Part shown: piece by piece, positions 231-6,457 of the stretch
Layout of the letters: every line of letters begins with the position of its first letter
How positions within the stretch are numbered: the first letter of the stretch is position 1
Source: a virus
Lineage: Duplodnaviria; Heunggongvirae; Uroviricota; Caudoviricetes
IMG/VR virus record: IMGVR_UViG_2563366830_000009
Direction: 5' to 3' (one strand)
Length of the DNA stretch: 6,457 nt
Notes under the pieces: model-generated
Told to the model about the DNA's origin: nothing
The model's input: only the letters and a program-made list of their open reading frames with translations
Databases searched by the model: none
Translations under genes and position numbers: made by a program

Positions 231-743
231 CTATGCAGGCTTTTTGGATTTGTACGAATAATCCCACGGATAAACATTTCTACTAAGTGGAGCTGTATTC
301 GTTCGTTCATGAAATAATTTTGTGAAATTCAATACGGAATCCATCCAAACTTTTGCGTTAGCTTTGGTGTGTGCGGGCGGGTCCCAATAAGCTAGTAAGG
401 CTGCATCTCTTATTTCATTGACTGCATATATGAGATATGCGTTACTGGTTGGTTTTGGCCTGTAATTTCCTTGTTCATCAATCAATCCATATGACCACTC
501 ATCCCAACACTGTTCAGTACATGAGTATGAATATGATGCATATTCACCAATATTGACATGAACCTTTCTGAGATGGAAGCCTAATACTTCGTCTGGTCTT
601 TCAAAAAGAGTATCTTTTCCCAGATCAGGATGATGACCATGACGCCAGTGTTGTTTAAAAGCATCTTTTAGCGAAATCAGAAAGTCATCAGTTTTAAACT
701 CACCAGTAGGTATAACCTTCCCGCTATACTCACTCAAAAACAT
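231..743 (-). CDS. YafO-family-like type II toxin (170 aa), putative ribosome-dependent mRNA interferase
   Basis: Good RBS on minus strand (AAGGAAGAGG about 6 nt before ATG at 743). Start overlaps the upstream ORF stop by 14 nt (730-743). Segments LFERPDEVLGFHLRKVHV and TSNAYLIYAVNEIRDAALLAYWDPPAH resemble my recollection of E. coli YafO (FERVAHIHL... and TNDEAHLVYCQG...WLLIAILKPEPH); not search-verified. Confidence 0.5.
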   Translation of the reverse strand: MFLSEYSGKVIPTGEFKTDDFLISLKDAFKQHWRHGHHPDLGKDTLFERPDEVLGFHLRKVHVNIGEYASYSYSCTEQCWDEWSYGLIDEQGNYRPKPTSNAYLIYAVNEIRDAALLAYWDPPAHTKANAKVWMDSVLNFTKLFHERTNTAPLSRNVYPWDYSYKSKKPA

Positions 744-1056
744 CGAATTCCTCTTCCTTCATATGCGTTTCTAATGAGTTAAGCTGGCGGAAAGATATCT
801 CTTTTGATTCTGCAGATGAGAGCTTTTTTATCCGCTTGATATTCTTTGTGATAGGAATAGACATTGTATGCACATCAGCGGATGCTCTTGGCTTTGTGCT
901 GATAAAAATATGGCGCAATGCCGCATTTTCACTATTGAACGAGCCAATAGCTGATTTACGTGCTACAACCTTACCAGTAAAAATACGACTCTTGCTACGC
1001 TTTGCATGAGTTCCGCTTCTTACCGGACCTCTCATCACGAATCCAAGTTTTGTCAT
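730..1056 (-). CDS. Hypothetical basic protein (108 aa), first gene of the module; candidate antitoxin or autoregulator, not YafN/Phd-like
   Basis: Strong RBS (GGAGA, 6-nt spacing) before ATG at 1056. Translationally coupled to the YafO-like ORF. Operator palindrome at 1099-1113 lies about 45 nt upstream. Very basic N-terminal half (GTHAKRSKSRIFTGKVVARKS). Confidence 0.5.
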   Translation of the reverse strand: MTKLGFVMRGPVRSGTHAKRSKSRIFTGKVVARKSAIGSFNSENAALRHIFISTKPRASADVHTMSIPITKNIKRIKKLSSAESKEISFRQLNSLETHMKEEEFDVFE

Positions 1057-1098: not shown

Positions 1099-1113
1099 TT
1101 ACCTTTAAGGTAA
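1099..1113. promoter_or_regulatory. Operator-like perfect palindrome TTACCTTTAAGGTAA (site 1), overlapping a -10-like hexamer of a minus-strand promoter
   Basis: Minus strand reads TTGCAG(1141-1136)-17 nt-TACTAT(1118-1113) running into the palindrome. The identical 16-mer TTACCTTTAAGGTAAT recurs at 3921-3936. Confidence 0.55.
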
Positions 1114-1156: not shown

Positions 1157-1324
1157 TTAAAGGCACATCCCTGTGCCGCCGCCCGGGCGGGAATCCGCAG
1201 AACGCCCACCGCAGCGTGAGCCGTCAGCAGCAGTGTCGCTGTCGTGCTGACAACGACCGGCAAAGGCCTGAGTTGACGCTACCAGAGACAACAAAACGAA
1301 CAGTGCAGCAAATGCTTTTTTCAT
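1157..1324 (-). CDS. Short ORF (55 aa) with a canonical Sec-type signal peptide (MKKAFAALFVLLSLVASTQAFA) and a Cys/Gly/Arg-rich tail; could be a small secreted peptide, a truncated gene 5' end, or a non-coding leader
   Basis: ATG at 1324-1322, stop at 1159-1157. The N-terminus has textbook n/h/c signal-peptide organisation, but the C-terminal 30 codons are read through GC-rich palindromes and there is no SD. An identical N-terminal coding segment in copy 1 (from ATG 149-147) runs off the left edge. Confidence 0.25.
   Translation of the reverse strand: MKKAFAALFVLLSLVASTQAFAGRCQHDSDTAADGSRCGGRSADSRPGGGTGMCL
1162..1177. other. Junction hairpin GGCACATCCCTGTGCC (6-bp stem, 4-nt loop) followed on the minus strand by a T/A-rich tract; module-boundary motif, possible weak terminator
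   Basis: The 24-bp motif aGGCACATCCnTGTGCCGCCGC recurs at 2315-2338 immediately after the 244-aa gene stop. Flanking promoter regions (ATAATT...TTGCAG) are also homologous. Confidence 0.4.
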
Positions 1325-1399
1325 TGTGACATTTCCATCTATAAGCCACCTCAATGTGGTGTCAATGAGTGTAGCACTGACTTTTGTTTCGTCCACAAA
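1176..1399. repeat. Direct repeat copy 2, about 99 percent identical to 1-224
   Basis: Same alignment as copy 1. Left boundary falls inside the hairpin motif GGCACATCCCTGTGCC (1162-1177); right boundary is the A-run before the terminator at 1403-1417. Confidence 0.9.
1338..1365 (-). promoter_or_regulatory. Sigma70-like promoter inside repeat copy 2 (-35 TTGACA consensus, 16-nt spacer, -10 TATAGA)
   Basis: Minus strand reads cactcaTTGACAccacattgaggtggctTATAGAtggaaatgtcacaATG. Perfect -35 and 4/6 -10; the ATG follows about 15 nt later with no clear Shine-Dalgarno. Confidence 0.45.
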
Positions 1400-1425
1400 A
1401 AAGCCCGCAGCGCGGGCTTACTTTT
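1397..1425. terminator. Rho-independent, bidirectional-type terminator (GCCCGC-AGC-GCGGGC flanked by an A-run and a T-rich run), terminating the minus-strand 182-aa gene
   Basis: Perfect 6-bp GC stem at 1403-1408/1412-1417. On the minus strand it is followed by TTTTTT (complement of 1397-1402) directly after the stop codon at 1418-1420. Confidence 0.7.
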
Positions 1426-1966
1426 CTTCAGGTTTGTTGTCTTCAGATTTCTTCTTGATGCTTGGTTTTTGTCTAAGAACGAAAATACCAGCCACTGCAA
1501 CAACTGTACCGATCACTGTGCCAGCTAGAACTTCATGACCTGTTAAACCTAATAATGTTGCACAAGCTACTGTAAAAATAGTTGCACTCAGGCCAAACCA
1601 CTGCCCACGTTTATCTCTATTAATAGCCCCGTCAAGTGCCTTTTCCTCCATTTTCTGGCGGTGAGCAAACTCCTTCTCCGTCAGCTGGAAGATGCGTTCG
1701 GGGGCATCAGGTAAAATATCCTGATACCCGCGAAGCAGATAGGGGGGAGGAAGCGGACCCTGAAACGCATGGTGAGCGACAACTATCTCCTGAATTTCAG
1801 GGCGATCAAGAACTCTTGTGAAGGCATCTGGGTGTTGAATGATCTCGTTACTTAGCCCTTCCTCAACTTCCTCGAACTCAGTTTCTTCGTTATCACTTGG
1901 TTGCCCAATAGATTTTTGCATATTTGTCGAAGGACATTCCTTTAGCTTCTGGTTTTCCTCTTGCAT
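1418..1966 (-). CDS. DUF2335 (COG5346)-like membrane protein, 182 aa, acidic N-terminal region and two C-terminal TM helices
   Basis: Motif PLPPPYLLRGYQDILPDAPERIFQLTEKEFAHRQ...RGQWFG then two hydrophobic helices matches my recollection of the DUF2335 family (unverified). The true start may be the internal Met at 1921; the long ORF overlaps the upstream gene by 74 nt. Confidence 0.55.
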   Translation of the reverse strand: MQEENQKLKECPSTNMQKSIGQPSDNEETEFEEVEEGLSNEIIQHPDAFTRVLDRPEIQEIVVAHHAFQGPLPPPYLLRGYQDILPDAPERIFQLTEKEFAHRQKMEEKALDGAINRDKRGQWFGLSATIFTVACATLLGLTGHEVLAGTVIGTVVAVAGIFVLRQKPSIKKKSEDNKPEEK

Positions 1967-2219
1967 TTGAGTTTTTCCCTGTCACTATTGCCCATTTTCC
2001 GCCAGCAGGCGCTGCAATTTTTTTTCCGTTCTTTACTATATATTCAGCATAAACACGATTTTCTGACCGTCTGAGATCGTCTCCGACCATATTCATGTCT
2101 CTTGATATAACTTTGACGACAGAGTCTCGGTTTAAAGCCTTGGCATAGTTGGAGCCAGGAACGATACCCAAAGGGGTGCCAGACTCTATAGCCAGCTCCT
2201 TGACATATCTTCTGCTCAT
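1893..2219 (-). CDS. Hypothetical protein, about 108 aa (MSRRYVKELAIESG...), first gene of the second module
   Basis: The track ORF begins with TTG at 2234, but the ATG at 2219-2217 is preceded by GAGGT (4-nt spacing). Operator-like site 2 lies 22 nt upstream. Overlaps or couples with the DUF2335-like gene. Confidence 0.5.
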   Translation of the reverse strand: MSRRYVKELAIESGTPLGIVPGSNYAKALNRDSVVKVISRDMNMVGDDLRRSENRVYAEYIVKNGKKIAAPAGGKWAIVTGKNSNARGKPEAKGMSFDKYAKIYWATK

Positions 2220-2240
2220 ATGAACCTCAACCAATCGACT

Positions 2241-2255
2241 TTACCAATCGGGTAA
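2241..2255. promoter_or_regulatory. Operator-like site 2, TTACCAATCGGGTAA (same TTACC-N5-GGTAA half-sites), overlapping a -10-like TAAAAT on the minus strand
   Basis: Same half-site and spacing as sites 1, 3 and 4. The surrounding region is homologous to the region upstream of the 108-aa gene (shared ATAATT...ACA...TTGCAG). Confidence 0.45.
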
Positions 2256-2316
2256 TTTTAAACATGAGTATAATGCTTTTAACTGCAACGAGTGTAAACA
2301 ATTATTGATAATTGTA

Positions 2317-2340: not shown

Positions 2341-3060
2341 TCAGAAGAACCCTGCCTTGTCGTTGATGTACTCCGCGTGGGTCTGGATATCACGCAGGCA
2401 TTTGCTCACACCGACGATGTAGCAGAACATGGTGGTCAGCTCCGCCGCCGCGCCCGATACGTCATGCCCGTCTTCCTGTAACTGGTTCAGCAAATTCATC
2501 AGCAGTGAGTTCTCCGTCAGGCCGAGAACACCAGACGGCGAGTGAATCAGGCTGCGGTAGCCGGGCTTCAGTGGGGCGCTGTATTCTTTTTTGTCTTCCA
2601 GCTTGATCGCCTCCATAATGGCGGGCATGAATTTTTCAATTACCTGAGTGGCCTTTGATAAATCAGCTCCACCTGAGAGACGAACATCTCCACTGACATT
2701 TGCGGGTTTTCTGTCGAAGTAGCAATCTTCCAGTTTTTCGAAGACCTCCCACGCTTTTTCAGTCTCAAGAATTTTCGCATGTCGTGCTGCACCGCGAGCG
2801 GTCCATAAGAAAAGATGACTTACTTTTGGTGCAATATTAAGCAAACCTCTTTGAGAGGACTCGTTCTTAAATGCTCGTAATTCTTCGCCTATCAGCTTGA
2901 AACAATGTTTTCCCTCAATGAATCGATCTGCATTTCGTTGATAGTTTTGACGAATCAGTTTGGGTTCTGTGTCATACAAATCAGCAAGCATTTCTGTAGT
3001 CATTACAGGGATGTTGCAATGAGTTGTTATCGGCAACTTATCAATAGCTATATTACGCAT
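2341..3060 (-). CDS. ORF6N-domain (KilA-N superfamily) protein, often annotated as phage antirepressor-like; N-terminal ORF6N domain plus an uncharacterised C-terminal domain of about 130 aa
   Basis: N-terminal region (VMTTEMLADLYDTEPKLIRQNYQRNADRFIEGKHCFKLIGEE...LWTARGAARHAKILETEKA) fits the ORF6N consensus as I recall it (VMLD-DLA-LY...RN-RFP-F-L-EE). The track start is 3075, but GGAGG with 8-nt spacing favours ATG at 3060-3058. That start overlaps the upstream gene stop (3053-3055) in the sequence ATGCGTAA. Confidence 0.6.
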   Translation of the reverse strand: MRNIAIDKLPITTHCNIPVMTTEMLADLYDTEPKLIRQNYQRNADRFIEGKHCFKLIGEELRAFKNESSQRGLLNIAPKVSHLFLWTARGAARHAKILETEKAWEVFEKLEDCYFDRKPANVSGDVRLSGGADLSKATQVIEKFMPAIMEAIKLEDKKEYSAPLKPGYRSLIHSPSGVLGLTENSLLMNLLNQLQEDGHDVSGAAAELTTMFCYIVGVSKCLRDIQTHAEYINDKAGFF

Positions 3061-3559
3061 TTTCATTGCCTCCATCTTTCACGACGAAATAGCAATTATC
3101 TTTATAATCTAACTGGATGAACTTTATGTTTTCAGGGAGTTTTACAGAAAGAGTTTTTGCACAAGCAAAACCAAAATCTGCGCCAGAAGCATCCATATAC
3201 CTTAATAATTGTTTTAATGCTGAAGGAGAAAAAGTATCTACCTTCACCTCAACAGGGTAACCATCTTTTGTTTTTAGGTCTGGTTGACCTGGTCCACCAA
3301 GTATTTCAGCGTTAAGGTATTTTGCTATTTCTGGATAAGCGTTGTATTCAGAGCGTAGTTTTGCCTTGTTATCGACTGCTAGTTGCATAAGATGATCAAA
3401 CAAATTGGTATCTAAATCTGCCCCTTCATCCCACATTCTATTTCTACAGCTAATCAATTCACTGACCAGTGGTGCACTTTCTTGCCTTAGCATAAGAAGG
3501 AGTGGAGAATTAGAAATTAACCAATACAGATCGTCGTTTGAGATTTTTTGGCCTGGCAT
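3053..3559 (-). CDS. Hypothetical protein (168 aa), AT-rich, translationally coupled to the ORF6N gene
   Basis: RBS GAGGT about 7 nt before ATG at 3559. Overlaps the downstream gene by 8 nt. No recognisable domain by eye. Confidence 0.5.
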   Translation of the reverse strand: MPGQKISNDDLYWLISNSPLLLMLRQESAPLVSELISCRNRMWDEGADLDTNLFDHLMQLAVDNKAKLRSEYNAYPEIAKYLNAEILGGPGQPDLKTKDGYPVEVKVDTFSPSALKQLLRYMDASGADFGFACAKTLSVKLPENIKFIQLDYKDNCYFVVKDGGNENA

Positions 3560-3835
3560 AGCGATACCTCTACTAGTAAGTTACCTACCACCGCAACGCC
3601 AATTGCTGGTGGTGAACTGGACAAGGTTGGCGTACCGGCCTAGTAGGTACCGGCGCACCTTTCGGTGCCCCTGCCCAGCCCACCATAATTCGGATATGAC
3701 TGTGCTATACGCATAAAAAAACCACGTCTGGCGTGGTATGCGCCTACTAGTAATCCGGGACGCCAATCCCGGCACTGGATTTTGCCAGTGCCCGATTACT
3801 ATGGCACAAGAGGAGTGCGATGTAAATTTACCGAA
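3560..3835 (-). ncRNA. Candidate structured RNA: either an sRNA of about 120 nt (roughly 3835 to 3714) or a long attenuator-type 5' leader of the 168-aa/ORF6N operon
   Basis: Multiple nested stem-loops are visible: an outer stem AGTAATC/GATTACT (3748-3754 with 3794-3800) enclosing hairpins CCGGGA-CGCCAA-TCCCGG and CACTGG-ATTTTG-CCAGTG; GCACC-TTTC-GGTGC; ACCACC...GGTGGT. A promoter with overlapping operator sits upstream and the terminator is at 3714-3737. No ATG-initiated ORF in this minus-strand stretch. Confidence 0.3.
3714..3737 (-). terminator. Intrinsic terminator-like hairpin on the minus strand (ACCACG-CCAGA-CGTGGT followed by U6-7) inside the long region upstream of the 168-aa gene
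   Basis: Plus strand shows aaaaaaACCACGtctggCGTGGT; on the minus strand the 6-bp stem is followed by a T-run. It lies about 155 nt upstream of the 168-aa start codon. Confidence 0.5.
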
Positions 3836-3871
3836 AAGGTAATGATAAACGCTAAGAAATATTAAAATCAA
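3828..3871 (-). promoter_or_regulatory. Minus-strand promoter (-35 TTGATT 3871-3866, 18-nt spacer, -10 TATCAT 3847-3842) overlapping operator-like site 3, TTACCGAAAAGGTAA (3828-3842)
   Basis: Minus strand reads TTGATTttaatatttcttagcgttTATCATTACCTTTTCGGTAA. The arrangement of a -10 hexamer running into the TTACC half-site is the same as at site 1 (TACTATTACC). Confidence 0.4.
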
Positions 3872-3920: not shown

Positions 3921-3935
3921 TTACCTTTAAGGTAA
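3921..3935. promoter_or_regulatory. Operator-like site 4, TTACCTTTAAGGTAA, identical to site 1 and 21 nt upstream of the 175-aa gene start
   Basis: Perfect palindrome; the 16-mer TTACCTTTAAGGTAAT matches 1099-1114. It is followed by tgtGAGGAaaagcaATG (RBS and start at 3956). Confidence 0.5.
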
Positions 3936-3955: not shown

Positions 3956-4483
3956 ATGGAAGTTTTCTTAATCATCGTCGGCATCGTGATTATTAATTTT
4001 GTTTTTTTATTTATTGCAAAAAAACAAAAAAGTAACGATATGCATGTTTCTACAACTGATGATCTTACCTTTGTAGAGCATGCACTGAATGTATCAGGAT
4101 ATAAACTCACTCCATACGGAGCTGGTGTATCACTCATGTCTTTAAGTAACGGTTTTTCAAAAGAAGAAACATTTTCACATATAGCTTTGATGGCTCTTTC
4201 TCAACACGCCAAAGTCGCAGGTAGTGACGCAATTGAGCTTAGTAAAGTTAGCATTCGTGCGATGTCGATAGCTGAAAACTTAACTAAATTATTCAGGAAA
4301 GGTCTTATTCGATCAGAAATATATAAAAATGATTTGAATGCTATCATGGCTGTCAGCACAATTAATGAAAACCAAGAGGATTGGATTTCCATAGTTCTGG
4401 AAAGCAATAGCACATCTAACAAGGATACTATTGCTTTGCCGATAAGTGCAGAAGCTTCTTTAGAAGCCATAAACAGCCATTGA
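3956..4483 (+). CDS. Hypothetical single-pass membrane protein (175 aa), AT-rich; N-terminal TM helix then a soluble domain
   Basis: RBS GAGGA 8 nt before ATG. The N-terminus MEVFLIIVGIVIINFVFLFIAKKQK is a clear TM segment with a positive patch after it. Only plus-strand gene in the window; convergent with the 618-aa gene. Confidence 0.5.
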   Translation: MEVFLIIVGIVIINFVFLFIAKKQKSNDMHVSTTDDLTFVEHALNVSGYKLTPYGAGVSLMSLSNGFSKEETFSHIALMALSQHAKVAGSDAIELSKVSIRAMSIAENLTKLFRKGLIRSEIYKNDLNAIMAVSTINENQEDWISIVLESNSTSNKDTIALPISAEASLEAINSH

Positions 4484-6377: not shown

Positions 6378-6457
6378 TGAACCGCCCCGGGAATCCTGGA
6401 GACTAAACTTCCTGAGAAAGAGGTAAACAGGATGACTAAAAATACTCGTTTTTCCCC
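6378..6457 (+). mobile_element. Left end of an IS3-family insertion sequence (IS629/IS1203-like): terminal inverted repeat starting TGAACCGCCCCGGG plus the first codons of orfA (MTKNTRFS from ATG 6432)
   Basis: The sequence TGAACCGCCCCGGGAATCCTGGAGACTAAACTTCCTGAGAAAGAGGTAAACAGGATGACTAAAAATACTCG matches my memory of the IS629-type left end and OrfA N-terminus (MTKNTRFSPEVRQRA...). The element continues beyond the window. Confidence 0.65.

Follow-up and report, generated by a model that had tools for sequence, protein, structure and literature searches.

What kind of operon is the two-gene cassette at positions 2219 to 1418 of the IMG/VR virus record IMGVR_UViG_2563366830_000009, and how might its two products act on one another? 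The stretch of DNA that we analyzed, 6,457 nucleotides (nt) long and referred to here as the window, carries on its minus strand a gene for a 108-amino-acid (aa) protein (gene A, 2219..1893), which overlaps a gene for a 182-aa inner-membrane protein of the DUF2335 family (gene B, 1966..1418). The window is identical (100%) to part of the E. coli MS 196-1 chromosome and lies in a prophage of the short-tailed epsilon15/phiV10-like type (genus Uetakevirus), integrated beside guaA. Phage vB_EcoP_ZX5, hereafter ZX5, carries the same DUF2335 cassette at 99.7% nt identity. We hold, with moderate confidence, that the operon is the enterobacterial-phage branch of an old and widespread DUF2335 two-gene module that is carried as cargo, and that the small, cytoplasmic protein controls its membrane partner. 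The firm part of this picture is a conserved two-gene module under selection, equipped with a promoter-like site, an operator, a terminator and overlapping frames. That gene B belongs to DUF2335 was already known from its annotation in public records; what our comparisons appear to add is the recognition of a small partner family of DUF2335 and the placement of gene A within it.

An earlier, sequence-only reading of this DNA had proposed that the membrane protein is DUF2335-like, and a profile search bears this out. Gene B matches Pfam PF10097 over the full 50-position model (residues 73-122) with an E-value of 1.6e-15 and 57.2 bits against a cut-off of 25, and its residues 37-182 match phrog_3996, a family named ‘membrane protein’. 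Pfam and our alignments place the DUF2335 core (PPPxxLxxY...H...RGQ) at 1601..1750 on the minus strand. The PLPPP...RGQWFG pattern and the two C-terminal transmembrane (TM) helices of that reading are likewise present: GPLPPP spans residues 70-75, with GPL just upstream of the core, and RGQWFG spans residues 120-125. Residues G70, P71, P73, P75, Y81 and H102 are invariant across remote DUF2335 members, so that gene B shares with DUF2335/COG5346 both the GPLPxP...Y...H...R signature and the C-terminal pair of TM helices. Kyte-Doolittle hydropathy locates helix 1 at residues 123-142 (1541..1600, minus strand) and helix 2 at residues 145-165 (1472..1534, minus strand), the latter followed by a lysine-rich tail; both segments reach 19-residue means above 1.6, and the flanking lysine and arginine residues predict an N-in/C-in topology. 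We therefore picture, as a prediction, a cytoplasmic N-terminal domain followed by a two-helix membrane hairpin. Unlike other DUF2335 proteins, gene B has a lineage-specific acidic N-terminal extension of ~35-65 residues, the PHROG profile starting at residue 37; the net charge of -11 over the first 72 residues agrees with the acidic extension seen earlier.

Two-TM proteins of phages include holins and pinholins, which are small (~70-110 aa) and are encoded in the lysis cassette beside the endolysin gene. We considered this class for gene B and rejected it, given the 182-aa length, the 120-residue cytoplasmic domain and the location of the lysis genes elsewhere in the prophage (6898-10031 of L001, the MS 196-1 prophage locus). 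Profile searches against the sequences of the PDB returned no solved structure related to gene B or to the gene A subfamily. Our literature search found no functional study of DUF2335, COG5346 or PF10097, and the sole activity claim for DUF2335, the ‘DUF2335 phospholipase’ of papers on the type VI secretion system, is apparently a slip for DUF2235.

Gene A poses a different problem, as it has a PHROG family (phrog_10654) and no match in Pfam, NCBIfam or PADLOC. Its product is basic, with a net charge of +11, and lacks a hydrophobic segment. An exhaustive HMMER search of 1.84 billion representative proteins yielded only ~8 true clusters for the gene A subfamily; the long repeat proteins P0159, P0163, P0164 and P0167 that also came up proved to be spurious multi-repeat matches. 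This scarcity of database relatives, together with the lack of any annotation for gene A in the record of Klebsiella phage BUCT711, might suggest that gene A is not a real gene and that the DUF2335 open reading frame (ORF) alone is expressed. We find that reading scarcely credible. Every enterobacterial locus for which upstream DNA was available (E. coli, Klebsiella, Leclercia and a Rahnella-like form) has an intact gene A ahead of gene B, and the pair persists as two ORFs across relatives whose amino-acid identity ranges from 100% to 34% (A) and 70% (B). Outside the overlap, the ratio of nonsynonymous to synonymous substitution rates (dN/dS) is 0.12-0.27 for gene A and 0.04-0.13 for gene B, and within the overlap it is the A frame that is constrained. 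The gene A start codon, ATG at 2219, is preceded at 5 nt by a strong Shine-Dalgarno sequence, GAGG (2225..2228, minus strand), which is kept in relatives, and the C-terminal part of the protein, within the overlap, bears the conserved motif F-D-K-Y-A-x-[IL]-Y-W-x-T-K. Its homology to a widespread partner family, described below, also speaks for a real gene. Both genes are real and under purifying selection, and gene A merits annotation rather than omission. The two do not evolve at the same pace: gene A diverges faster than gene B, with identities of 50% vs 78% in one comparison and 34% vs 70% in another. In strain VL40 (L125 2501-2775), gene B has been deleted, and the promoter and the 5' part of gene A are left.

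Is the pairing of a small upstream gene with a DUF2335 gene confined to these phages? We examined a remote sample of 79 diverse metagenomic DUF2335 loci and a few more from genomes. Most of them encode, on the same strand and immediately upstream of DUF2335, a protein of ~70-80 aa that follows roughly the pattern xDFLFAxPSFxSGxARxxDLxGxxxxYNxSxxxxEADAKAxxxDWxxVGxDxxxA. A hidden Markov model (HMM) built from 25 of these remote upstream ORFs was searched against 7,988 and later 12,525 six-frame ORFs from all loci; among the 12,525, it matched only ORFs directly upstream of DUF2335, and many of the loci it matched were outside its building set. The partner is present in 47 of the 53 non-redundant remote loci with enough upstream DNA, and in some of the other six there is a candidate that has diverged further but shares the motif D-M-x-x-I-G-x-D-M. 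Searching the database with the profile extended the family to at least 253 clusters at 90% identity, all of them ‘hypothetical’ and without Pfam domains, and neither Pfam nor NCBIfam holds a model that matches it. As an independent check, we took two proteins from this database search, P0082 and P0117, and found a DUF2335 ORF directly downstream in all six of their contigs. Environmental viral contigs contribute 11 loci in which the partner lies upstream of DUF2335. The association of the two genes spans phyla.

Gene A appears to be a divergent, C-terminally extended member of this partner family, a placement to which we give moderate confidence. It rests on HMM and profile-profile similarity together with identical gene order. 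The remote HMM matches gene A at an E-value of 0.014 and the Rahnella-like intermediate (L035) at 6.8e-5 (both against the 7,988 ORFs), and hhalign aligns residues 13-59 of gene A (2043..2183, minus strand) with the family core over 46 columns at a probability of 89.9% and an E-value of 1.7e-6. In this region the gene A motif DMNMVGDDLRR corresponds to DWxxVGxDLxxA of the family. Gene A thus resembles the family in position, strand and overlap, and in a core that ends in D[WM]xx[VI]GxD. It differs from the remote members in being 30-40 residues longer, in having a C-terminal motif of its own, and in being basic where most of them are acidic or near-neutral. A full-length MAFFT alignment of gene A with the remote partners set GKWAIVTG, instead of DMNMVGDD, against the family motif and was not used. 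AlphaFold modelled the remote partner P0082 as two helices (residues 16-34 and 39-71) with a predicted local distance difference test (pLDDT) score of 77.5, and the remote small proteins are predicted on this model to be helical hairpins. A Foldseek search of the PDB with the model gave a best E-value of 5.4, and the remote partner profile found among PDB sequences only a marginal match to Dps (E-value 0.012).

The two genes of the cassette overlap by 74 nt (1893..1966, minus strand), comprising the last 24 codons of A and the first 24 of B. Where gene B begins had been left ambiguous by the sequence-only reading, with starts at 1966 and 1921 and overlaps of 74 or about 27 nt. Both candidate starts and the longer overlap are as described; the shorter overlap comes to 29 nt, with a gene B product of 167 aa. 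Annotated starts differ in the same way, PGAP, which calls the same two coding sequences, using 1966 and the ZX5 record using the equivalent of 1921. The comparative evidence favours 1966. The ATG at that position is invariant in seven diverged relatives, with purine-rich sequence ahead of it, and M1 of gene B is kept in all long-form relatives, whose overlaps are all 74 or 77 nt. The window has a weak Shine-Dalgarno-like AGGGA (1976..1980, minus strand) 9 nt ahead of this ATG, and the Klebsiella and Leclercia relatives have a stronger AAGGAAGG 5 nt ahead of the same conserved codon. M16, the residue that the 1921 start would make the first, is not kept: the Klebsiella, Salmonella and Enterobacter forms have threonine in its place. 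The ATG at 1921 owes its existence to two adjoining gene A codons, TAT-GCA (Tyr100-Ala101), and a TAC codon for the tyrosine would yield just such a threonine. In the Rahnella-like form, the 1921-equivalent start seems to be the one in use, with an overlap of 32 nt. Inside the overlap, dN/dS is 0.29-0.49 in the constrained A frame and 0.6-3.6 in the B frame, which is close to neutral drift, and the first 24 codons of gene B are poorly conserved.

The acidic extension of gene B and its ambiguous, overlapping start had been taken to suggest coupled or programmed translation. The first of these is plausible: an overlap is present in every enterobacterial relative, the remote pairs usually overlap or abut, and simple translational coupling through overlapping frames would be the economical reading. 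The second fared less well. We found no slippery heptamer leading into gene B, whose frame is +1 relative to that of A, and the RNA around the gene B start is neither conserved in structure nor more stable than shuffled sequence (z -0.16, 3 consensus pairs). A programmed frameshift or transcriptional slippage that fuses A and B would explain the long overlap, and the databases do contain A-B fusions and frameshifted or truncated A proteins (P0004-P0006), which arise at a run of eight A residues inside gene A and at a run of five near 1972-1976. These proteins stem from isolated short contigs, assembled from raw reads, in which the A-runs carry indels, and we do not count them as genuine products. 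As gene B also has its own invariant ATG, and as neither an X-XXY-YYZ site nor a conserved RNA structure is there to promote fusion, we regard this explanation as very improbable. The run of eight (T8 on the plus strand, 2018-2025) is not found in the Klebsiella and Leclercia relatives.

Having defined the coding part of the cassette, we turned to its control. A consensus scan predicts a sigma-70 promoter at 2255..2282 on the minus strand (-35 TTAAAA, 16-nt spacer, -10 TAAAAT), with a second candidate, TTTACA-17-CATTAT, at 2298..2270 on the same strand. A palindrome, TTACCAATCGGGTAA (TTACC-N5-GGTAA, 2241..2255), directly adjoins the -10 element, and the Klebsiella, Leclercia and Rahnella-like relatives share this layout, in which the last T of the -10 is the first T of the palindrome. 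Every relative has the palindrome ahead of gene A; its half-sites never vary, whereas the spacer does. At the other end, the cassette closes as the sequence-only reading had described: the TAA stop codon of gene B (1420-1418) runs into an intrinsic terminator (1419..1395, minus strand) with an 8-bp stem of which 6 pairs are G-C, a 3-nt loop and a U6 tract. The stem begins inside the stop codon, and the centroid fold has an energy of -13.4 kcal/mol. An Rfam match to Trp_leader at 1395-1508 (E-value 0.81, under threshold) is merely this terminator.

That the cassettes of the window share an operator family had also been proposed, and the shared motif is there: TTACC-N5-GGTAA occurs four times in the window (1099-1113, 2241-2255, 3828-3842 and 3921-3935) vs 0.14 expected. 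It is not specific to the cassettes, however, and is predicted to be the immunity operator of the prophage repressor. The prophage has 10 perfect palindromes in 36 kb vs 0.03 expected, with further copies in the adjacent immunity region that bring the total to 13, and these also precede structural, replication, antirepressor and cargo operons. In L122 and L126, the loci from ZX5 and the window's own prophage, sites lie on both sides of the repressor gene and also between the repressor and a divergent cro-like gene, a classic OL/OR layout. We found no published definition of a TTACC-N5-GGTAA operator, and the ZX5 paper (PMC9782041) gives none; the identification of the cassette operator as an immunity operator is new. 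The repressor, WP_000836293.1, is an HTH_3 (helix-turn-helix) protein of 194 aa without a self-cleavage domain, 99% identical to ORF21 of ZX5. When ORF21 was overexpressed, transcripts for endolysin and holin fell by >99.9%, and ZX5 was driven toward lysis by the antirepressor (PMC9782041). We infer that the cassette belongs to the regulon of the immunity repressor. Given an immunity operator at its promoter, we predict that the cassette is silent while lysogeny is stable and is switched on once repression is lifted. Silence of the cassette in lysogens would fit the published tests of ZX5 lysogens, in which growth, stress tolerance, biofilm and sensitivity to antibiotics were all unaltered (PMC9782041).

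The same operator bears on whether gene A could be a DNA-binding autoregulator of the palindrome, with gene B acting alone, perhaps to exclude superinfecting phages. The strong basic charge of gene A might suit such a protein, and the palindrome stays with the cassette in prophages that have no nearby copy (L002, L004 and L035). Yet the palindrome precedes unrelated genes and clusters at the repressor/cro region, which is the signature of an immunity repressor; an operator of this type speaks against autoregulation by gene A. Of the remote homologues, most are acidic or close to neutral, one has been modelled as a hairpin of helices, and none matches a Pfam DNA-binding family, just as gene A itself has no Pfam match. 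Together these observations leave the autoregulator with a small share of our belief, and we return to the immunity repressor as the likelier controller of the cassette. Control of this kind has a parallel in phage P1, whose C1 repressor acts at many dispersed operators, one of which controls the immI (c4-icd-ant) operon. The prophage resembles P1 in having one repressor with predicted operators scattered before many operons, including that of a C4 RNA and antirepressor; it is unlike P1 in that its operator is symmetric, the P1 operator being asymmetric, and in that its repressor is the 194-aa HTH_3 protein. The same cassette is also found, at 88% nt identity, at the edge of a different prophage next to yfhH (L002 5021-5825), one with myovirus-type tail genes (baseplate J and a pinE invertase).

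We next consider where the cassette sits. In E. coli, the slot downstream of the antirepressor gene holds the DUF2335 pair, a YafO-like pair, both in tandem, or an unrelated 210-aa ORF, and the window represents the tandem case. A covarying GC hairpin marks one edge of a cassette, and a 227-bp repeat the other. The repeat, direct and 99% identical between its copies at 1-227 and 1176-1402, is the constant flank of the slot and probably explains how cassettes come to lie in tandem. The repeat also encodes a 55-aa signal-peptide protein (1324..1157 and its copy; phrog_14503, ‘membrane associated protein’), whose ORF has a promoter-like TTGACA-16-TATAGA to itself. The hairpin, GGCACA-N4-TGTGCC without a U-run, lies at the upstream junction of each cassette (1163-1178 and 2318-2333); its stem covaries, as relatives have GGCGCA...TGCGCC, and the hairpin might serve in processing or attenuation of the transcript, or mark a boundary of recombination.

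The YafO-like cassette (231-1056, minus strand) encodes a 108-aa protein (phrog_5933, no Pfam match) and a 170-aa YafO-like protein whose genes overlap by 14 nt. The latter scores 19.7 bits against PF13957, under the cut-off of 25, and is named a YafO family toxin by PGAP. The two cassettes are alike in having an operator, a small gene that overlaps the downstream gene, a 227-bp flank and the same slot; they are unlike in that their proteins are unrelated and the downstream product of the YafO-like cassette is soluble. The idea that both cassettes use the same small protein did not survive comparison, as the two have no detectable similarity (best BLASTP E-value 0.095) and fall in different PHROG families. 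Their equal length of 108 aa is, judging from these comparisons, a coincidence, and the two genes should not be treated as one family.

If the pair is a module, its surroundings in remote genomes might hold clues as to its role. The flanks of 50 remote pairs contain 126 ORFs from 101 different Pfam families and no recurring third gene, the commonest families being ribosomal protein L17 (5), phage integrase (4) and IS1 transposase (2). With its flanking genes unrelated, the pair therefore functions as a unit. One such unit could be a non-toxic membrane complex, engaged in envelope or stress sensing or in anchoring, in which the small protein is an obligate subunit or chaperone and which the phage has borrowed. 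The setting of remote pairs among housekeeping genes, where L17 is the neighbour at 5 loci and defence genes are not enriched, agrees with such a role, as do the lack of PADLOC or toxin-antitoxin profile matches and the ZX5 lysogens without a phenotype (PMC9782041). Other features sit less easily with it: the distribution is patchy, the pair recurs on prophages and viral contigs, a YafO-like toxin pair can take its place in the cargo slot, the rate of evolution is much higher in the small protein than in the membrane protein, and one genome has the pair inside a toxin-antitoxin gene cluster. We consider the non-toxic complex possible, though distinctly short of probable. The genome in question is from the Acidobacteria (L116 3660-4185 and 9361-11109), and there the pair stands between ParE/Phd and PIN/Phd toxin-antitoxin genes.

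We prefer to see the small protein as the controller of its membrane partner. In this mechanism, the repressor would keep transcription of the cassette off in a stable lysogen, and infection or antirepressor-driven derepression would turn it on. Translation of gene B would be coupled to that of A through the overlap, holding the ratio of the products, and the small protein would bind the cytoplasmic part of the DUF2335 protein and control its activity at the membrane, the two working as a toxin-antitoxin-like or effector-regulator pair. Such a mechanism is plausible. The order of the genes, their coupling, the more rapid evolution of the upstream one, the mobility of the pair and the slot shared with the YafO-like pair speak for an antagonist-effector relation. 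The +11 charge of gene A against the -11 of the gene B N-terminus suggests a lineage-specific contact; the basic C-terminal extension of A and the acidic N-terminal extension of B, both specific to this lineage, may have arisen together and would be the likeliest extra contact. Across pairs, the charges of the two proteins are anticorrelated (rho -0.48, p 4.5e-4).

Several observations weigh against this preference. Without the enterobacterial clade, the charge anticorrelation is lost (rho -0.13, p 0.42), and it therefore counts as one evolutionary event. The similarity of gene A to the partner family is of moderate statistical strength and extends over 46 columns only, and the AlphaFold model of full-length gene A, with a pLDDT of 41, is unusable. 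Neither A nor B has a toxin-antitoxin match in Pfam, and the PADLOC defence models give none for A and a chance-level match to MTase_II (E-value 0.039) for B. Many remote pairs lie amid housekeeping genes, for example after rplQ, a setting that fits a non-toxic role equally. In L002, the operator travels with the cassette and has no other copy in the 10.9 kb fetched, and control by this repressor may therefore not hold everywhere. A bolder version of the preferred mechanism, in which the pair is a phylum-spanning membrane module of toxin-antitoxin or abortive-infection type, with a two-TM effector restrained by its partner, repeatedly captured by temperate phages and here wired to the immunity repressor so as to fire only on infection or induction, is one that we put forward only tentatively.

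Among known systems, the pair resembles CptA/CptB (YgfX/SdhE), a toxin-antitoxin operon with a membrane-protein toxin in which the gene for a small soluble protein precedes that for a two-TM inner-membrane protein. The two are also alike in being mobile and patchily distributed and in having a faster-evolving upstream partner. They are unlike in that there is no sequence relationship, the TM helices of gene B are C-terminal, and the predicted operator of the cassette belongs to a phage repressor.

The remainder of the window sets the cassette in its phage context. The window spans the prophage genome from an internal virion protein gene to the tailspike side. Upstream of the cargo slot, Rfam identifies an immI-like block (3605-3804, minus strand) made up of a C4 antisense RNA (3605-3690, 76.7 bits vs a threshold of 45), isrK (3715-3791, 68.1 bits vs a threshold of 50) and c4-a1b1 targets (3752-3804, just under threshold), all on the minus strand. 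Downstream of the C4 and isrK RNAs on that strand are a 168-aa ORF (3559..3053) and the ORF6N antirepressor gene (3075..2341). With C4 RNA and isrK upstream of an ORF6N antirepressor gene, we therefore regard this as an immI-like antirepressor region, after which the cargo cassettes follow.

On the plus strand, 3956-4483 encodes a 175-aa protein with an N-terminal TM helix, a sole family match to phrog_21690 and its own operator copy. The gene is placed between a virion injection-type gene and the antirepressor region, which is the position of sieA in P22. Copies of IS3 occur at the right end of the window (~6386-6457) and in the MS 196-1 prophage locus at 8561-9789 and 21432-22645 of L001. 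These insertions disrupt the internal virion protein gene and a holin gene, and the prophage is therefore defective in this strain; the repressor and the cassettes are intact.

For the DUF2335 family, these results mean that the membrane protein gains a near-obligate small partner that is listed in no family database, and that its function becomes approachable as that of a pair. For the phage, immunity operators on the cassettes of the slot predict that their products would act during infection or induction and not in the resting lysogen. Should the pair not be toxin-antitoxin-like, annotation would still be improved; should it be so, a class of membrane effectors ranging from Acidobacteria to E. 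coli phages would be added.

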